Source of the DNA: a virus
Taxonomy: Duplodnaviria; Caudoviricetes
DNA: 25,025 bases
IMG/VR virus record: IMGVR_UViG_3300012942_000127
Coordinates: 1 to 25,025 of that record
Reading direction: 5' to 3' (one strand)
Below the pieces are notes generated by a model, which was given only the letters and a program-made list of their open reading frames with translations, ran no database searches and had not been told where the DNA came from. A program made the translations under genes and the position numbers. Shown here one piece after another: positions 4,564-15,799 of this stretch. Every line of letters begins with the position of its first letter. Position 1 is the stretch's first letter.

Positions 4564-5636
4564 GCCTGTCGCCCGAGCTTGCCGCCCTCCGTGACGAGGC
4601 TTTGCGGGTCACCTGCCAGTCCTGGGCTATCCAGAAGCGGTGGAAGCTGGCCAAGGATGGCGCCTGGCTCGTCGGTCCCTGTCCAGAGTGCGGCGGCACC
4701 GATCGATTCTCGATCAGCATCCAGCGGGACTTCTTCAAATGTCGAAAGTGCGACGTCCAGGGTTCGGGCGTCATCGATCTCGTCATGAAGACGGAAAAGC
4801 TGGAGTTCGTGCCGGCCTGCGAGCTGATCACCGGACGCAAGGCCGCCGATCCGGTCGACGAGAAGCGAATGGCCGAGCTTAGGGCAAAGGCGGAAGCCGA
4901 TGCTCGCAAGCGCGAGCAGGATGCCGCTATTTTCCGCGAGCGGGCGCGCGAGGCCGGCTATCGAATCTGGCATAGCGCCAAGGCCGTGCCGATCGGTGGC
5001 ATCGTTTCCGCCTATCTCGCCGAGGCGCGGGGCCTGCGTGGCGGCCGCATCGATTTCAGCGCGCCCGGTTGGGCCGCCGGCATGCACATCCGCTACATCG
5101 CCGCGCATCCGTATTGGGATGAGAAGGGCAAGCACCGGCTGCATGTCGGGCCGGCGATGATTGCCGGCATCCAGTACCCGGACGACAGTTTCGCCGGCGC
5201 GCATCAGACCTGGATCGATCTCGACCGCCCGAAGGCTAAACTGGTGTTGCCGCCCGACGAGAAAGGGCGGCAGCGTTCGGCCAAGAAGGTGCGCGGCAGC
5301 TGGAAGGGCGGCGCGATCCGTCTCGTGACGCCACCCAATGTACGCCGAATCGTGATGGGCGAGGGCATCGAAACGACGCTGACCGCCTATGCCCACGCCT
5401 GGGAGCCCGACACGGCCTATTGGGCTGGCGTCGTCAAAGGCAACATGGCCGATTTCTTCGTGCCGCCCGATTGGTGCCGGGAACTGATCTATCTCACCGA
5501 CGAGGCCGAGGCGATCGGCGACATGGAAAAGGGCCTGCGGCGCGCTGAGGCTGCGCGGCCCGGCCTCGTCGGCATGCTGGTCGAGCCGGTCGGGGACGGC
5601 CGGGACTTGAACGAGCTGGTGATGCACCGTGGCTGA
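4560..5636 (+). CDS. P4-alpha-type zinc-ribbon plus Toprim-like primase
   Basis: ATG 4560 (ATGA overlap), 358 aa. Zn ribbon GPCPECGGTDRF...CRKC, then GAHQTWID, GGAIRL, Toprim VMGEGIET and C-terminal DLNE. Confidence 0.85.
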   Translation: MSLSPELAALRDEALRVTCQSWAIQKRWKLAKDGAWLVGPCPECGGTDRFSISIQRDFFKCRKCDVQGSGVIDLVMKTEKLEFVPACELITGRKAADPVDEKRMAELRAKAEADARKREQDAAIFRERAREAGYRIWHSAKAVPIGGIVSAYLAEARGLRGGRIDFSAPGWAAGMHIRYIAAHPYWDEKGKHRLHVGPAMIAGIQYPDDSFAGAHQTWIDLDRPKAKLVLPPDEKGRQRSAKKVRGSWKGGAIRLVTPPNVRRIVMGEGIETTLTAYAHAWEPDTAYWAGVVKGNMADFFVPPDWCRELIYLTDEAEAIGDMEKGLRRAEAARPGLVGMLVEPVGDGRDLNELVMHRG

Positions 5637-7527
5637 CGACGAGGATCCGAACGGTCCCGACGCGGTCAAGAAGGCGATCGGCCGTAAACGCAAGGTCGGG
5701 CCGCTGACCGTCATCGAGGGCGGTAAGGGCGAAAAGCCGAAACGCGCGCGCAAACCGAAGGCCAAGGTCTCGGCCGAGAGCGATGGCGGTTTCGATCCCT
5801 CGGCCGTACCGGGAGCTGTCGGACAGGAATTCGATGACGTCGAACCGGAAGATGAGGATGGCGACGATTTCGATGGCGCCAACTTCAATGGTGATTTCAG
5901 CGGCGATGATTATGACCGCCGGCCGGATGGCTATGACGATGCGATCTGGGAGATGGCCAAGCATTGTGCGGCCTATGATCAGAACGATCGCGACAATGCG
6001 CGGCGGCTCGACATATGGTCAGGCGGAAACATCCGCTATGTGCCTGGCCTCGGCTGGCTGACCTGGCGCGGTACGCATTGGGAACGCGATGAGGGCGAGT
6101 TGCATGTGCGCCTGATGGCGCAGGACCTGGTCGACCGCATCAAGCTCGAGCCCTTCTTCATATTGGCGACGCCGGCACAGCAGAAGCTGCTCGATATCGC
6201 CGCCAAATATGCCAAAATCGCCGAAGAGGATCGTTCGCCGGGGCAAGTGGCGACGATTGCTCGCGCCGACAAGGTGCGCTCCGCGCTGTCGAACAAGCGC
6301 AGCAAACGCAAGAATTTCGCGGTCACTTCAGGCAATGCCGGCCGCACGACGGCGATGCTGGTGCAGGCCACTAGCCTGAAGAAAATCGACCCGAAGACGC
6401 TCGATGCCGATCTCTATCAGTTCAATGTGCGCAATGGCACGCTGCATTTTTCCCGCACCCCGGACCTCGAGCAGGATATCGATGGGCCGGACGTGAAAAT
6501 CCGCTATATCGGCAATATCGAGTTTCGGCCGCATAGTCGCGACGACTTCGTGACCAAGATGGCCGATGTCGATTACGATCCCGAGGCCAAATGCCCGCGG
6601 TTCCAGGCATTCCTCGACCGGATGATGCCCGGCGACCAGATGCAGCGCTTTCTGATGGTCTTTCATGCTTATGCCATGCTGATCGGCGGTAATGGCGCCC
6701 AGAAGGTCGCTTATCATTTCGGCCTTGGCGGCAATGGCAAGACGGCCTTCCTGGAGACGCTCGGGCGCCTCGCCGGCAACTATCGCACTACGGTTTCACC
6801 AGACACGATTACCGGCGATAGCCAGCGGCAGGGGCAGCAAGCCTCACCTGACATCGCCCGGCTGTTCAACACCCGCTTCGTCGTGGTGGAGGAGCTGCCG
6901 AAGGGCGCGTCGCTGCGCGAGGACCTGATCAAGGCGTTTTCCGGCGGCACCAGGTTGACGGCGAGATTCCTGCAGAAGGACATTTTCGAGTTCCTGCCGA
7001 TTTTCGTGGCCATTCTCTCCGGCAACACCAAGCCGACCATTCAGGGCTCGGACCAAGGTATTTGGCGGCGCGTGCTGATCGTGCACTGGAAGCAGACGAT
7101 CGCTGAAGATGATCCGTCGCGCATGGAGCTGCCGGACCTATTAGCCATGTTCGACGAGGAACGATCCGGTATCCTCAACTGGCTGATCGAAGGTGCGTTA
7201 CTCTATCTCAAGAGCGGGCTGATGACCTACGTCCCGGCCGAGGTGACCGCCTTCACCAATGCATATCGTCGCGACCGCGACAATATCCAGGTGTTCTGCG
7301 AGGCGATGATCCGGCCGGCGAAGGGTAAGAAGGTGCAGGCCGGACCACTCTACCGAAGCTATACCGATTGGTGCGAGGCCAACGGGCTGCGATCGGCATC
7401 GCAGCGTAGCTTCGGCGATCGCCTGACCGAGTTGGGCTACGAGAAATATTCCGGCCGCGTCTACGAGTATCTCGATATCGAGCTCGAGGCGAACCCCAAA
7501 TACGATCCGCCCGGCTCGAACGATTAG
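5629..7527 (+). CDS. D5/P4-family primase-associated SF3 helicase
   Basis: 632 aa, GTG start. D5_N-like WLTWRGTHW and FNVRNGTL, Walker A GLGGNGKT, Walker B VVVEE, motif C GNTKP, GIWRR, ILNWLIEGA, and winged-helix-like LYRSYTDWC. Confidence 0.9.
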   Translation: MADDEDPNGPDAVKKAIGRKRKVGPLTVIEGGKGEKPKRARKPKAKVSAESDGGFDPSAVPGAVGQEFDDVEPEDEDGDDFDGANFNGDFSGDDYDRRPDGYDDAIWEMAKHCAAYDQNDRDNARRLDIWSGGNIRYVPGLGWLTWRGTHWERDEGELHVRLMAQDLVDRIKLEPFFILATPAQQKLLDIAAKYAKIAEEDRSPGQVATIARADKVRSALSNKRSKRKNFAVTSGNAGRTTAMLVQATSLKKIDPKTLDADLYQFNVRNGTLHFSRTPDLEQDIDGPDVKIRYIGNIEFRPHSRDDFVTKMADVDYDPEAKCPRFQAFLDRMMPGDQMQRFLMVFHAYAMLIGGNGAQKVAYHFGLGGNGKTAFLETLGRLAGNYRTTVSPDTITGDSQRQGQQASPDIARLFNTRFVVVEELPKGASLREDLIKAFSGGTRLTARFLQKDIFEFLPIFVAILSGNTKPTIQGSDQGIWRRVLIVHWKQTIAEDDPSRMELPDLLAMFDEERSGILNWLIEGALLYLKSGLMTYVPAEVTAFTNAYRRDRDNIQVFCEAMIRPAKGKKVQAGPLYRSYTDWCEANGLRSASQRSFGDRLTELGYEKYSGRVYEYLDIELEANPKYDPPGSND

Positions 7528-7606
7528 TTTCGGGCCGACCCTTTGCGCGCTCGCGGCTTTGCCGTCGGCGCCCCGCACCCCCTCCCCCAAGATAGAAAAA
7601 CGGAAG

Positions 7607-7920
7607 TCGCAACCCTCGTCGCGCTGACGCGCGCGACACGAGGGTTGCGAGAGTTTTTCGAGGTTTAAATGCGACACTCTCGCGGGCGTTTCAATAGTAA
7701 AATCAACATGTTGACCGGTGATTGCGAGGGTCGCGAGGGTCGCGCTCGGGTATATATGGGTTTCGGGGGAAAAGGGGTTGGCCTCACCCTTCCCGTTGGT
7801 GGCGAAAGCTCACATCATGTGAAGCAACCCTCGCCACCCTCGCAAACCCCCGCCATGTCGTTGGTCCTGCGTCGCTTTTTAGCTAGCGAGGGTCTTCTCT
7901 CGACCCTCGCTAAACCTCGC
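7607..7920. repeat. ACCCTCG iteron cluster, putative replication origin
   Basis: Eight exact ACCCTCG/CGAGGGT copies (+ at 7612, 7827, 7836, 7903; - at 7639, 7725, 7734, 7887) plus degenerate copies. Inverted repeats at 7607-7619/7638-7650 and 7884-7894/7902-7912. AT-rich patch at about 7689-7713. Lies directly downstream of the helicase. Confidence 0.75.
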
Positions 7921-7941
7921 AGAGAAATAGAGGCGAAGCCG

Positions 7942-8598
7942 ATGGTTGAAGAAGAGGTGAAGCCGGCCAACGTGCCGGTCGTGAAGGTGCCGATGGGGCG
8001 TGGCAGCGCCGCACAACGGCGGCAGTTCGAGCAGCCGGAGCTGCCGACGCCTCGCGAGATTGAGGCGCATAGCTGGTACATCGTTCAAGTGGCGTCGAAC
8101 CGCGAGCAATTGACGGCCGACTTGCTGCGCCACCGCGCCCATCTGGCAGTCGTGCCGGTGGTCGAGCGATACCGGCGCGCCAATCGCTATGCCAGGAGCA
8201 AGCGCAAGGTGACGTTTCCCATCATGCCGCGCTATGTGATCGTGGGGTTTGGCCGTGACGCCATGCAGCCCTGGCGCGACCTGTTCGGTATCGGATTTGT
8301 GCAGGGCGTAGTCAGCGACGCTCGCGGGCCGATGCAGGTGCGCGACAAGAAGTTGGCCAAGTTTTTCGAGGAGCTTGGCGGCTCGAAGTGGAACGCGCCG
8401 GATTGGGAGCGCCATATGCGGTCAGGGCACGAGTTCAAGCCCGGCGACTATGTCGACCTAGCTGAGGGATCGCTGGCGGGCTGGCGCGTACAGGTTCACG
8501 ACATCGTCGGCGATGTGGCGAAGATCATTATCAACAACCTGCTCGGACGCGACGTAGAGATGTCGGTGCCGCTTGCGCAACTCATCAAAGCAGAGTAG
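7942..8598 (+). CDS. NusG-family transcription antitermination protein (NGN + KOW), probable late-gene activator
   Basis: ATG 7942 after AGAGG, 218 aa. NGN features WYIVQVASNREQ, PIMPRYVIV and VQGVV. KOW-like FKPGDYVDLAEGSLAG and NLLGRDVEMSVP. Occupies the lambda Q position. Confidence 0.88.
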   Translation: MVEEEVKPANVPVVKVPMGRGSAAQRRQFEQPELPTPREIEAHSWYIVQVASNREQLTADLLRHRAHLAVVPVVERYRRANRYARSKRKVTFPIMPRYVIVGFGRDAMQPWRDLFGIGFVQGVVSDARGPMQVRDKKLAKFFEELGGSKWNAPDWERHMRSGHEFKPGDYVDLAEGSLAGWRVQVHDIVGDVAKIIINNLLGRDVEMSVPLAQLIKAE

Positions 8599-8601
8599 TT
8601 G
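8573..8601 (+). promoter_or_regulatory. putative sigma70-type late promoter (pR'-like)
   Basis: TTGCGC (8573-8578), 17-bp spacer, TAGTTG (8596-8601), overlapping the antiterminator stop codon. The match is imperfect and supported mainly by position. Confidence 0.4.
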
Positions 8602-8691
8602 TTCGATTTAGGACGATTGCTCGATCCGACCGCAGGCATTTGAGCCCGAGCGGCGGAGTGACCCAGGCGCCGACGATACGAGCGCCGCCAA

Positions 8692-8703
8692 GGGCGAAGC
8701 TTG
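8692..8703 (+). promoter_or_regulatory. ops-like pause / factor-loading element
   Basis: GGGCGAAGCTTG is a 12-mer fitting the G-11 G-10...Y-1 G+1 elemental pause consensus, like ops (GGCGGTAGCGTG). It contains the GCGAAGC DNA mini-hairpin and lies just upstream of a terminator. Confidence 0.5.
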
Positions 8704-8725
8704 CGACATCGATAGCCGAACCACG

Positions 8726-8753
8726 ACGCGCCCGAGTGGCGCGTTTTTCGTTT
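8726..8753 (+). terminator. intrinsic terminator upstream of the late operon (tR'-like)
   Basis: Stem ACGCGCC (8726-8732) / GGCGCGT (8738-8744), loop CGAGT, followed by TTTTCGTTT. Confidence 0.75.
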
Positions 8754-8917: not shown

Positions 8918-8961
8918 GGGTCCTTCCCCGAGGCCGGCGCGTATGCGGAACGTCAAAGCGC
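8918..8961 (+). other. lambda-like cos site (cosQ plus cosN)
   Basis: GGGTCCT (identical to lambda cosQ) at 8918-8924, then 23 nt ending TATGCG (lambda: 23 nt ending TTACG), then GAACGTCAAAG-CGC. Immediately upstream of terS. Confidence 0.75.
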
Positions 8962-9030: not shown

Positions 9031-9627
9031 ATGGAAAACATCGACACTGGCCTGCCAGCCGGCGTTGTGGATGCGGTCCTCAACCGCGGCGAACTGGCAC
9101 GGGCACTGAACAAGAGCGAGCCGACCATCACGGCGTGGATCGGCGAGGGGATGCCGGTCCTCCGGCAAGGGACAAATGGGCAGGCCTACGAGTTCCAGCT
9201 CTCGGCGTGCTGGCGCTGGCTGAAGGCCCGTGAGCGCGCCGATCAGGAGAAGACCTCGGCGGCGCAGCAGGCCGTGCAGCAGATGCGCCTGGCGCTGATC
9301 GGCGGCAATGACATTGCCGATGATGATCGCATCCTCAGCCCCAAGCAGCGGCAAGAACTATACGATGCCGAGCGCGCCTACCTGCTGGCGGCCCAAAAGC
9401 GGGGCGAGCTGGTCAACCGGATCGATGTCGCCATCGTCTTCGAAAAGGTGTTCGTCATTATGCGCGACGCGCTGACCTCATTGCCGGACCGCCTCGAGCG
9501 CGAAATCGGCCTCACCGGCCGAGCCCTCGATCTATCGATCCAGATCTGTGACGGCGTCCTGGTCGAGGTGCAGAAGGAAATCGGCGACATGGCGCAGGCC
9601 GAGCAGCTGCGCGAGGCGGCCGAATAA
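9031..9627 (+). CDS. terS: terminase small subunit (gpNu1/DUF1441-like)
   Basis: 198 aa. Winged HTH LNRGELARALNKSEPTITAWIGEGMPV...GQAYEF, then a coiled coil, RGELV and LPDRLER. Precedes terL. Confidence 0.9.
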   Translation: MENIDTGLPAGVVDAVLNRGELARALNKSEPTITAWIGEGMPVLRQGTNGQAYEFQLSACWRWLKARERADQEKTSAAQQAVQQMRLALIGGNDIADDDRILSPKQRQELYDAERAYLLAAQKRGELVNRIDVAIVFEKVFVIMRDALTSLPDRLEREIGLTGRALDLSIQICDGVLVEVQKEIGDMAQAEQLREAAE

Positions 9628-9629
9628 AC

Positions 9630-11792
9630 ATGCTGCTCGATCATGATTATCGCCGCAGCGGGGGCGTTCTGCCGCCGCTCGCCTCGGCATGGGAGTGCGT
9701 CGCCGAGGCATTGCCAGCCGTCGCACCGGCGCAGCGCATCACAGTGCCGGAATCGGCGGCGCGGTATCGGATCGTCGAGGCGCCCGGCTATCGCGGCCCC
9801 TGGCGCAACGAAGCTGCCCCGCAGATGATCGAGCCGGCCGAGCAGATGACCTCACGCCGCTTCGAGGGCGTGATCTTTGCGGGACCGGCGCGCACGCTCA
9901 AGACGGACGGGCTCGTAGTGAACACGATCGCGCACCGCATCATGACGAACCCGCGCGATATGCGCGTCGTCCACATGAGCAAGGATACGGCCCGAGAGTT
10001 CTCGCTCTCGACCATCGACAAAATGATCCGCAACTCGCCGGCGATCCGCGCACGCCTGGTGCAGGGCCGTCGCTCAGACAACATCTTCGACAAGCAGTTT
10101 ATGGGCGGCATGCGGCTGACCATTGCATGGCCGGTGATTGCCCAGCTTTCGGCGGCGACGCTGCCGGATGTGCTCTTCACCGATTATGATCGTATGCCCG
10201 ACGACATCGACGGCGAAGGCGAGCCCTTCGCCCTCGGCAAGAAGCGCAACGAGACGGTCGGCTCGGTCGGCAAGACAGCGGCTGAAAGCTCGCCCGGCCG
10301 TCCGATCATTGACGATGAGTGGAAACCGTCTACACCGCACGAGCCGCCGCCGACGACAGGCATCCTCGCGCTTTACGGGCAGGGCACGCGCGGCCGGCTC
10401 TATTGGCCGTGTCCGCATTGCGCCAAGCTCTATGAACCCAAGTTCTCGCTGTTCCGCTATCCGCAGGGTGCGCCGCCGGTCGAGGCCAGCGAGCAGGTGC
10501 GGCTGATTTGCCCGCATTGCGGCTACCCGACGCCGCCGGAACTGAAAATGGAATTGCTCGCCAACTCGCGCTGGTTGCACGAGGCGGCGGATGAAGGGCT
10601 CGGCGGCTATCTCGCTGGCCTCACCACCATCGACGGGAATGTCCGCCGCTCGCCGCTCGCCAGCTACTGGATGTTCGGGCCGGCGGCATCGTTCCAGACC
10701 TGGCCGAAACTGGTGCTGGCCTATCTGCAGGCCGAGCAGGTCTATAAGCTGACCGGCGACGAAAAGGCCCTGCAGGTCACCGTCAACGTCGACCAGGGCG
10801 ACGCGTATCGCCCGCGGGCGATGGGCACGTCGTCGCTGATGACCGAGGTCGAGCTGAAGAAGCGCGCGGTCAAGCTGCCGGGCCAGGGTGTACCGGTCAA
10901 TACGCGCTTCATCACCGTGCAGGTCGACGTGCAGGCCAATCGCTTCGTGGCACAGGCGGATGCCTGGGGACCGCAGCTGGAGCGGACGCTGGTCGATCGC
11001 TTCGAGCTGTTCGAACCGGCCGATCCGGATAGTGAGCGGGCCATCGATCCCGCCCGTTATGCGCAGGATTGGGATTGCCTTTTCGCCCTCGCCGAACGCG
11101 AATACGAAGTCGATGGGACCGGCTATGCGTTGCGGCCGGCGTTCACCGTGGTGGATAGCGCCGGCCAGCCCGGCGTCACCGCCAATGCCTATAAATTCTG
11201 GCGCCGCGCGCGCAAGCGCGGCCTTGGCCACCGCATCATGCTGGTGCGCGGCAATCACGTGAAGCGCGGACTGCCGGATGCGCAGCGACGGGCTTATATC
11301 GCCTACCCGGAACGCTCGACGGAAAACGGCCGCACCAGGCAGCTCGACGTGCCGGTGATCTGGGTCGGGACCGATGCGCTGAAAGACGAAATCAGCGCGG
11401 CGCTCACCCGCGATGAGATCGGCGACGGGTCCTACAACGTCCTCGACCGCGTGGACCCGGTAGTGTTCGCGGAGCTGGCGGCGGAACGGCGCACCGACAA
11501 GGGCTGGGAAAAGCGGCCCGGCGTGGTGCGCAACGAAGCCCTCGACCTCGCCGTCTATGGCAAGGCCGTCGTCATCGTCAAAGGCGGCGAAAAGATCAAT
11601 TGGGCGGCGCCCCCTGATTGGGCTGCGCCCATGGAAACGAATGTCAACGCAGTGCTGGTCGAGGGCTTCGTCACGCCTGCGGTCGAGCCGTTCACGCGGC
11701 CGCAGGAAGAGCCGCTGCCATCAGCGACGATGCCGGCTCGTTCGCGCTCTGGATGGCTTGGCGGCCGTCGCCATGGATTTTTGGGGAGATAA
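9630..11792 (+). CDS. terL: terminase large subunit, lambda GpA family
   Basis: 720 aa. GPWRNE, Walker A-like GPARTLKT, FTDYDRM, ESSP, two CPHC motifs, nuclease VDVQANR, DSAG and RNEALDLAVY. Confidence 0.93.
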   Translation: MLLDHDYRRSGGVLPPLASAWECVAEALPAVAPAQRITVPESAARYRIVEAPGYRGPWRNEAAPQMIEPAEQMTSRRFEGVIFAGPARTLKTDGLVVNTIAHRIMTNPRDMRVVHMSKDTAREFSLSTIDKMIRNSPAIRARLVQGRRSDNIFDKQFMGGMRLTIAWPVIAQLSAATLPDVLFTDYDRMPDDIDGEGEPFALGKKRNETVGSVGKTAAESSPGRPIIDDEWKPSTPHEPPPTTGILALYGQGTRGRLYWPCPHCAKLYEPKFSLFRYPQGAPPVEASEQVRLICPHCGYPTPPELKMELLANSRWLHEAADEGLGGYLAGLTTIDGNVRRSPLASYWMFGPAASFQTWPKLVLAYLQAEQVYKLTGDEKALQVTVNVDQGDAYRPRAMGTSSLMTEVELKKRAVKLPGQGVPVNTRFITVQVDVQANRFVAQADAWGPQLERTLVDRFELFEPADPDSERAIDPARYAQDWDCLFALAEREYEVDGTGYALRPAFTVVDSAGQPGVTANAYKFWRRARKRGLGHRIMLVRGNHVKRGLPDAQRRAYIAYPERSTENGRTRQLDVPVIWVGTDALKDEISAALTRDEIGDGSYNVLDRVDPVVFAELAAERRTDKGWEKRPGVVRNEALDLAVYGKAVVIVKGGEKINWAAPPDWAAPMETNVNAVLVEGFVTPAVEPFTRPQEEPLPSATMPARSRSGWLGGRRHGFLGR

Positions 11793-15731: not shown

Positions 15732-15763
15732 ATGAGGCGCCTTCGGGCGCCTCATCGTTTTCT
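15732..15763 (+). terminator. hairpin after capsid gene (terminator or mRNA stabiliser)
   Basis: Perfect 10-bp stem ATGAGGCGCC / GGCGCCTCAT with a C(UUCG)G loop, followed by CGTTTTCT. Confidence 0.75.
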
Positions 15764-15799
15764 CACCCCCTTTTTGCAACTCCGCTATGGGAGAGTTCT

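Follow-up and report, generated by a model that had tools for sequence, protein, structure and literature searches.

A candidate late-gene antitermination switch combining a phage NusG paralogue with a predicted two-stem leader RNA

Characterised NusG paralogues activate bacterial operons for capsules, antibiotics and conjugation. The put RNA of phage HK022 acts on early genes and does so without any phage protein. It is described as 73 nt long and made of two stems close to where the transcript begins; a pause lying 21 nt beyond stem II is suppressed by it, and the effect depends on that distance (PMC9378689). How most of the specialised NusG paralogues find their targets is called an open question in an article that also mentions, in passing, rfaH-like genes on prophages (PMC7593976). 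UpxY is reported to load at pause-hairpin pauses, where its NGN domain reads upstream and non-template DNA and the RNA of the class 1 hairpin is not recognised (PMC11685472, sections 9 and 11); according to the same report, opsX carries a non-template hairpin in one class and none in another. LoaP is reported to require a leader hairpin (PMC12691694). Our literature search, outside which most subscription papers and supplements lay, returned no characterised NusG late switch of a phage and no RNA of the kind described below.

The locus lies in a 25,025-nt stretch of DNA from a temperate phage, here called the window, which is a linear virus record about 44% complete, with a late operon extending past its end. 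The gene order is lambda-like. A primase (5629-7527) is followed by the NusG paralogue (7942-8598) and, across a gap of 430 bp, by terminase, portal and protease-capsid genes. The succession of regulator, promoter, terminator and late genes known from lambda Q/qut is present in the window. The features are as follows.

7942..8598, + strand: NusG paralogue (NGN and KOW domains, 218 aa) of a phage subfamily with an RxNRYxKxK β2-β3 hairpin and an APxxQRxMRTxxEF linker
8155..8220, + strand: basic β2-β3 hairpin, residues 72-93, candidate nucleic-acid contact; strands at residues 73-79 and 87-93 in the model
8573..8578, + strand: predicted -35 hexamer TTGCGC, within the last codons of the gene
8596..8601, + strand: predicted -10 hexamer TAGTTG, whose TA belongs to the stop codon; 17-nt spacer, predicted start near 8608
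8611..8664, + strand: predicted stem 1 of the leader RNA, with a GG/CC base, an A.C or G-U pair, a YGA bulge, an irregular hairpin and further internal loops
8666..8686, + strand: predicted hairpin 2 of the leader RNA, ending 16 nt before the pause-like T; variable in sequence, pairing kept
8692..8703, + strand: pause-like 12-mer GGGCGAAGCTTG, with T8702/G8703 and a GCGAAGC core at 8694-8700; fits the elemental pause consensus (PMC9974457)
8725..8753, + strand: intrinsic-terminator-like hairpin, stem from 8725, and T run
8918..8924, + strand: GGGTCCT, a cosQ-like motif distinct from the leader
9031..11792, + strand: small (from 9031) and large (from 9630) terminase subunits, first genes of the putatively controlled late operon
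15732..15765, + strand: second strong terminator-like site, within the late operon and 3' of the capsid gene

Much of this layout had been anticipated in a preliminary description made from the sequence of the window. It had placed a NusG-family gene in the lambda Q position, an assignment upheld by the coordinates, by Pfam and PHROG matches, and by the primase before and the terminases after the gene. The promoter candidate over the stop codon and the 12-mer GGGCGAAGCTTG were both located exactly, with some of the homologues keeping the TTG position and the TAG or TAA stop of the former, and the terminator shortly 3' of the 12-mer is present and recurs in homologous loci. It is the homologous loci that speak against a chance origin of promoter, 12-mer and terminator. 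Two further observations concern the region upstream. A helicase-methyltransferase fusion of 900 aa is encoded at 102-2804, and the gap 5' of the paralogue (7560-7930) holds several ACCCTCGC repeats and their reverse complements, possibly an origin or operator region adjoining the primase.

The reading frame 7942-8598 matches Pfam PF02357 (35.7 bits, cut-off 22.2) and the 'transcription antiterminator' PHROG 6386 (E 1e-14). The frame is open from 7669, and we placed the start at 7942 because the relatives P0003 and P0005 likewise begin with MVEEEV. An AlphaFold2 model (pLDDT 92) shows an NGN and a β-KOW domain, with NusG and RfaH as the best PDB matches; PF02357, this model and a profile search all place the protein in the NusG superfamily (NGN plus KOW). 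The KOW domain consists of β strands only in this single model, which is still compatible with fold switching of the kind seen in RfaH, whose autoinhibited KOW is α-helical and refolds. The curated cut-offs of the RfaH, UpxY, LoaP and NusG families are all missed, with 28.3 bits against 144.5 for TIGR01955 (RfaH), 30.4 against 100 for NF033644 (UpxY) and 17.7 against 125 for NF033641 (LoaP). The RfaH-like identity first suggested for the factor finds no support in its score, which is below the RfaH cut-off. Residues 72-93 align to the NusG β-hairpin, and the net charge of this hairpin has a median of +7 among the 22 proteins caught by a regular expression. The KOW domain is positive in none of 61 homologues (median net charge -4), the positive charge lying on the β2-β3 hairpin instead.

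A homologue search of 50%-cluster representatives yielded 536 proteins (E≤0.001), the best 150 of which have the RxNRYxKxK hairpin and an MRTxxEF linker in common. Loci were gathered from viral, genome and metagenome collections with the back-translated linker, 104 of the 119 sequences examined from this search encoding a relative, and more came from further searches. A single-protein locus search in viral contigs gave no matches, and a class-level genome search gave three further matches, all stop-containing. The 114 loci fall into 68 protein clusters at 85% identity, two of which (L119 and L124) were found through the RNA pattern and the others through the protein; we did not count the duplicate of the window, one protein from a cyanophage, five paralogues that were chromosomal or unrelated, or any locus with less than 300 nt downstream. 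Named hosts are almost all Alphaproteobacteria. A terminase is among the next three ORFs in 30 of 58 homologous loci scanned (a manual count in which many loci were short), and these terminases belong to unrelated families, of the lambda, HK97 and headful types.

Several relatives stand apart. T4-like cyanophages encode a distant one (L003:3037-3627, 27% identity), whose surroundings are unrelated and gave no leader match. The Hyphomicrobiales chromosomal RfaH-like genes of L152 and L157 have in common an ops-like CACCCGGAGTGCGGTAGC about 90 nt after the stop codon, and the genes that follow it resemble polysaccharide genes. In other clades of the family (L024, L039, L014, L036, L058, L083, L053, L068, L143 and L089), different common downstream motifs were seen by eye, which may represent further leader RNA classes.

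The TTGCGC-17-TAGTTG candidate fails a sigma-70 consensus scan. Among the homologues, 24 of 68 clusters have TTG 23 nt ahead of the stop, which in every one of them is TAG or TAA; of the 44 others, 26 use TGA. The clusters are related, so these promoter counts are not fully independent events. The leucine codon that supplies the TT of this TTG is CTT in 22 of 28 cases, as compared to 112 of 814 elsewhere. When distances are taken from the leader RNA instead, 36 of 40 loci show a TTG 33-42 nt 5' of it, displaced cassettes included (shuffle mean 7, maximum 17). From this codon choice and spacing we infer a transcription start near 8608.

The best-conserved cis part, which did not figure in the preliminary description, is a predicted leader RNA of about 78 nt with two stems at 8611-8686. 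Across the loci, a GG-R-YGA motif opens 2-3 bases after the predicted start and pairs with YCC 35-106 nt on, with hairpin 2 directly after, and the RNA occurs in a long and a short form. In 34 loci whose anchors were chosen by hand with the pairing in view, the third pair of stem 1 is A.C in 25, G-U in 6 and A-U in 2, and of the 136 cells of the next helix 108 are paired, as compared to 76±4 after shuffling of partners. Counted on plain MAFFT alignments against a structure that we supplied, 39 cells of the long form change on both sides, where shuffling gives 13.9, and 33 of the short form, where it gives 17.4; slid controls fell below the observed covariation in both alignments, and for the short form covarying pairs were no more numerous than in the shuffles. 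The bulge bases of stem 1 are near-invariant, and the loops, ATTTGA and ACGATA in the window, vary among homologues. These data support the folding of the first ~80 nt into two abutting stems. Energy-based predictions speak in part against this model: the minimum-energy fold of the window (-30.9 kcal/mol, against -28.2 for the comparative model) does not close the GG/CC base and displaces one helix, the window leader has a fold z of -1.75, and RNAalifold pairs GGAYG of the long form with a downstream CGCC instead. A kink-turn at the YGA bulge was rejected, since 13 of 34 loci have G or C at the base that has to be A.

Covariance models detect the leader in 36 of 68 clusters, comprising 30 that contributed seeds, five out-of-sample matches at E≤0.01 and one weak match; short-form models also match long-form loci. 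The match in the window, itself a seed member, spans 8609-8686 at 51 bits. The other 32 clusters are without a valid model match, some having look-alike variants by eye, implying that the paralogue family is not always accompanied by the leader RNA. An R3 match in L012 (E 8e-4) proved false, lying in coding DNA 859 nt upstream, so that the model E-values are rough. A scan with an RNA pattern gave 18 viral matches, nine directly 3' of a paralogue and nine elsewhere; by inspection the latter are without the 5' part, and their model E is above 0.01. A looser sequence pattern for the short form matched 148 of 401 genomes and was useless. In the RNA-model search, with 28 candidates scored per genome, three of 151 genomes matched, all three directly 3' of a paralogue. 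Rfam gave no match in the window and only one tRNA in 14 homologous loci, on which basis a known Rfam family was rejected.

By the strict scan, 23 of 39 loci have a terminator no further than about 100 nt from hairpin 2, as compared to 6 of 195 shuffles; an earlier, looser scan was too permissive (27 of 117 shuffles matched) and was replaced. In 18 of these 23 loci the terminator pairs have a mean probability above 0.8 within the full leader. The terminator thus dominates the ensemble, which argues against an antiterminator fold in cis, and a cis antiterminator or riboswitch was rejected on this ground. The window's own value is low, at 0.37, although its minimum-energy fold keeps the terminator. 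In three loci (L082:1687-1758, L092 and L095), a tRNA gene takes the terminator's place directly 3' of the leader RNA.

These results bear on the reading of the element as a DNA packaging signal, or as a riboswitch or attenuator unrelated to the paralogue. It lies just 5' of cos and the terminase genes, and a leader followed by a terminator is a layout typical of riboswitches. However, the leader precedes all three types of terminase, whereas the cosQ-like motif occurs only with the lambda type. GGGTCCY, the cosQ-like motif seen at 8918..8924, accompanies lambda-type terminases in 10 of 12 loci and other terminases in none of 18. We therefore rejected a packaging signal, and with neither a conserved antiterminator fold nor an Rfam match in the loci searched, we regard this whole reading as highly improbable.

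Downstream of hairpin 2, TG occurs at a distance of 15-17 nt in 21 of 34 loci and YG in 27 of 34 (shuffle 5.9±2.1, maximum 13 in 2000 shuffles), hairpin 2 having been called by folding (6 of 40 loci gave no call) and the 15-17 nt window set after inspection of the data. A second TG stands at position 13 in 10 loci. The 29 aligned pause 12-mers prefer G at -11 (20) and -10 (14) and T at -3 (17), preferences that resemble the elemental pause consensus quoted in PMC9974457.

By itself GCGAAGC is common, with eight copies in the window on both strands. GCGAAGC-n1,2-TG occurs within 300 nt in 5 of 68 cluster representatives, against 0.45 expected, and also in L083 and L020. As DNA, d(GCGAAGC) forms an exceptionally stable mini-hairpin. 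The preliminary description had proposed a conserved GCGAAGC loading hairpin and expected GCGAAGC..TG to recur 5' of a terminator beside homologues. The position of TG and the terminator were borne out, and GCGAAGC itself is enriched and in the ops register, but it is absent from about 90% of the clusters. It occurs in 7 of 68, in separate parts of a quick tree, and starts at -9 or -10 in those loci that allow a pause to be assigned. In the clade of the window, L005 has GCGAAGC, whereas L004 (76% identical to L005) and L007 have GTGGTT(A/C), and two of the window's three closest relatives are without it. A universal GCGAAGC loading site was ruled out by this minority occurrence and by the swapped core in L004 and L007; sequence comparison indicates that GCGAAGC is a real but optional variant. 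The canonical ops was also rejected, because its GCGGTAG core is absent from the window and, present in 4 of 68 clusters, shows no enrichment over shuffles (mean 2.0, maximum 6).

The recurrence of GCGAAGC at -9 or -10 of the pause is what loading on DNA alone, as at ops or opsX, would predict. The paralogue would then read the non-template strand and the upstream duplex, hairpin 2 would be merely a pause hairpin, and stem 1 would be dispensable. The basic β2-β3 hairpin is like that of UpxY, whose NGN is reported to read DNA and not hairpin RNA, and opsX is likewise reported with and without a non-template hairpin (PMC11685472); for the former reason in particular this explanation keeps a minor share of our confidence. 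It leaves unexplained, however, the covarying helices and near-invariant bulge of stem 1, 40-90 nt 5' of the pause, and the core that differs between proteins of 76% identity. We lean slightly towards a requirement for the folded RNA in antitermination by the paralogue.

The promoter, RNA, pause and terminator move as a unit. In L020, L023, L057 and L081, inserted DNA displaces them 250-850 nt downstream, with a TTGAC promoter kept ahead of the displaced cassette; displacement by 250-850 nt from the paralogue was also observed in L051, L013 and L110. In genome G002, a full cassette (G002:C6:45488-45566; L138 and L161) stands 2.7 kb 5' of a terminase. The 8.5 kb upstream of this cassette hold no paralogue, and the sole phage-type paralogue of this genome lies on another contig (C23:98657-99274; L158) without a leader RNA. 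Possibly the arrangement in G002 is split and acts in trans, in the way of a gene transfer agent.

The G002 cassette without a nearby paralogue is compatible with an RNA that acts like put, binding polymerase and antiterminating alone, while the paralogue adds processivity or protection from Rho and the promoter sets the timing. The leader layout is indeed the same as that reported for HK022 put (PMC9378689). All the genome-wide model matches nevertheless lie directly 3' of a paralogue, and a self-acting antiterminator before its own terminator makes no switch unless the promoter is regulated, so we consider this improbable. We give similarly little weight to the idea that the terminated transcript of ~145 nt is a trans-acting small RNA, the paralogue using other signals or another target. 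Promoter, fold and terminator do delimit a discrete RNA, and in Shiga-toxin phages terminated late-leader transcripts act as sRNAs; here, the fixed 15-17 nt spacing to the pause and the conservation of paired geometry, and not of an unpaired seed, suggest a co-transcriptional role.

Taken as a whole, the data make it probable that the NusG paralogue is a late antiterminator acting on this leader. As to how, we give a modest preference to a mechanism in which it loads at an RNA-flanked pause and antiterminates the late operon, in the manner of UpxY/opsX and with a put-like RNA. Host polymerase would start near 8608, at the promoter overlapping the stop codon, as codon selection and spacing suggest, and the first ~80 nt would fold into the two abutting stems that covariation supports. 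Polymerase would then pause at T8702 with hairpin 2 just out of the exit channel, a step suggested by the consensus match and the fixed spacing. With the paralogue absent, transcription would stop at 8745-8753, giving the ~145-nt RNA. In the least certain step, the paralogue would bind the paused complex via the folded RNA and the bubble-flanking DNA, and the modified polymerase might pass the leader terminator and later ones. The size and placement of the RNA, like those reported for HK022 put (PMC9378689), suggest docking on polymerase near the exit channel. GCGAAGC would be one among several interchangeable non-template signals and not the loading code of the family. More speculatively, the put-like nascent RNA, docked at the exit channel, and the paralogue might convert the paused polymerase only jointly, which would make them an antitermination complex of a new class, with a portable cassette that is maybe switched in trans in G002.

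The system consists of a small protein and a 190-bp cassette. It comes with predictions down to single base pairs and with natural variants that have or lack the DNA mini-hairpin, so that recruitment by RNA, by DNA or by both can be tested directly. A portable, protein-gated terminator is also a potential tool for gene control in Alphaproteobacteria.

Among known systems, UpxY/opsX of Bacteroides fragilis resembles the phage locus in having a NusG paralogue with a basic β2-β3 hairpin and a leader pause of elemental consensus, the opsX RNA hairpin being reported to end at -9 to -16 (PMC11685472). The pause preceded by an RNA hairpin is present here at the level of sequence. On the other hand, the upxY gene comes first in its own operon, 3' of opsX and with upxZ, whereas the phage gene lies upstream of the promoter with the terminases next, and no UpxZ was seen. 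The phage target is a late operon, and an extra covarying RNA domain of 50-100 nt stands before the hairpin. LoaP at dfn and mln of Bacillus velezensis shares the combination of paralogue, leader RNA, pause, terminator and long operon; as reported (PMC12691694), it binds a small UNCG hairpin and has a basic KOW domain, whereas the phage has a larger, bulged two-stem RNA and a neutral or acidic KOW domain. No UNCG hairpin occurs in the leader loops of the window.

RfaH at ops of E. coli shares the 12-nt consensus pause, and the 12-mer of the window could form a small non-template hairpin at the ops register (compare PMC7819879 and PMC7593976). ops is described as having no pause hairpin (PMC11685472), whereas the phage pause follows hairpin 2. 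The single phage model shows a β KOW domain, the ops core is not enriched, and the first start codon comes 328 nt after the pause. With HK022 put (PMC9378689) the likeness is one of layout: the transcript begins with two abutting stems, together ~75 nt, and stem II is followed at a set interval by a pause, which is given as 21 nt for put and is 15-17 nt in the phage leaders. Lambda Q/qut, Bartonella BrrG (10.1101/2024.11.20.624540) and Caulobacter GafZ (PMC11150451) show the same succession of regulator, promoter, short leader, terminator and genes for packaging and virion, and the latter two are described as antiterminating phage-derived late genes in Alphaproteobacteria. As described there, Q, BrrG and GafZ bind promoter DNA and are not NusG folds, whereas the phage protein is one. 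BrrG is also reported to need a -10-like pause element (10.1101/2024.11.20.624540), which is not conserved in the phage leaders; by inspection, the transcript starts show no conserved -10-like sigma pause (TAnnnT) and read nnGGRYGA. The system would work like UpxY/opsX and LoaP, yet by the marks that define each it belongs neither with them nor with RfaH or Q. If RNA and paralogue do act only jointly, phages of Alphaproteobacteria would gain a fourth solution besides N, Q and put.
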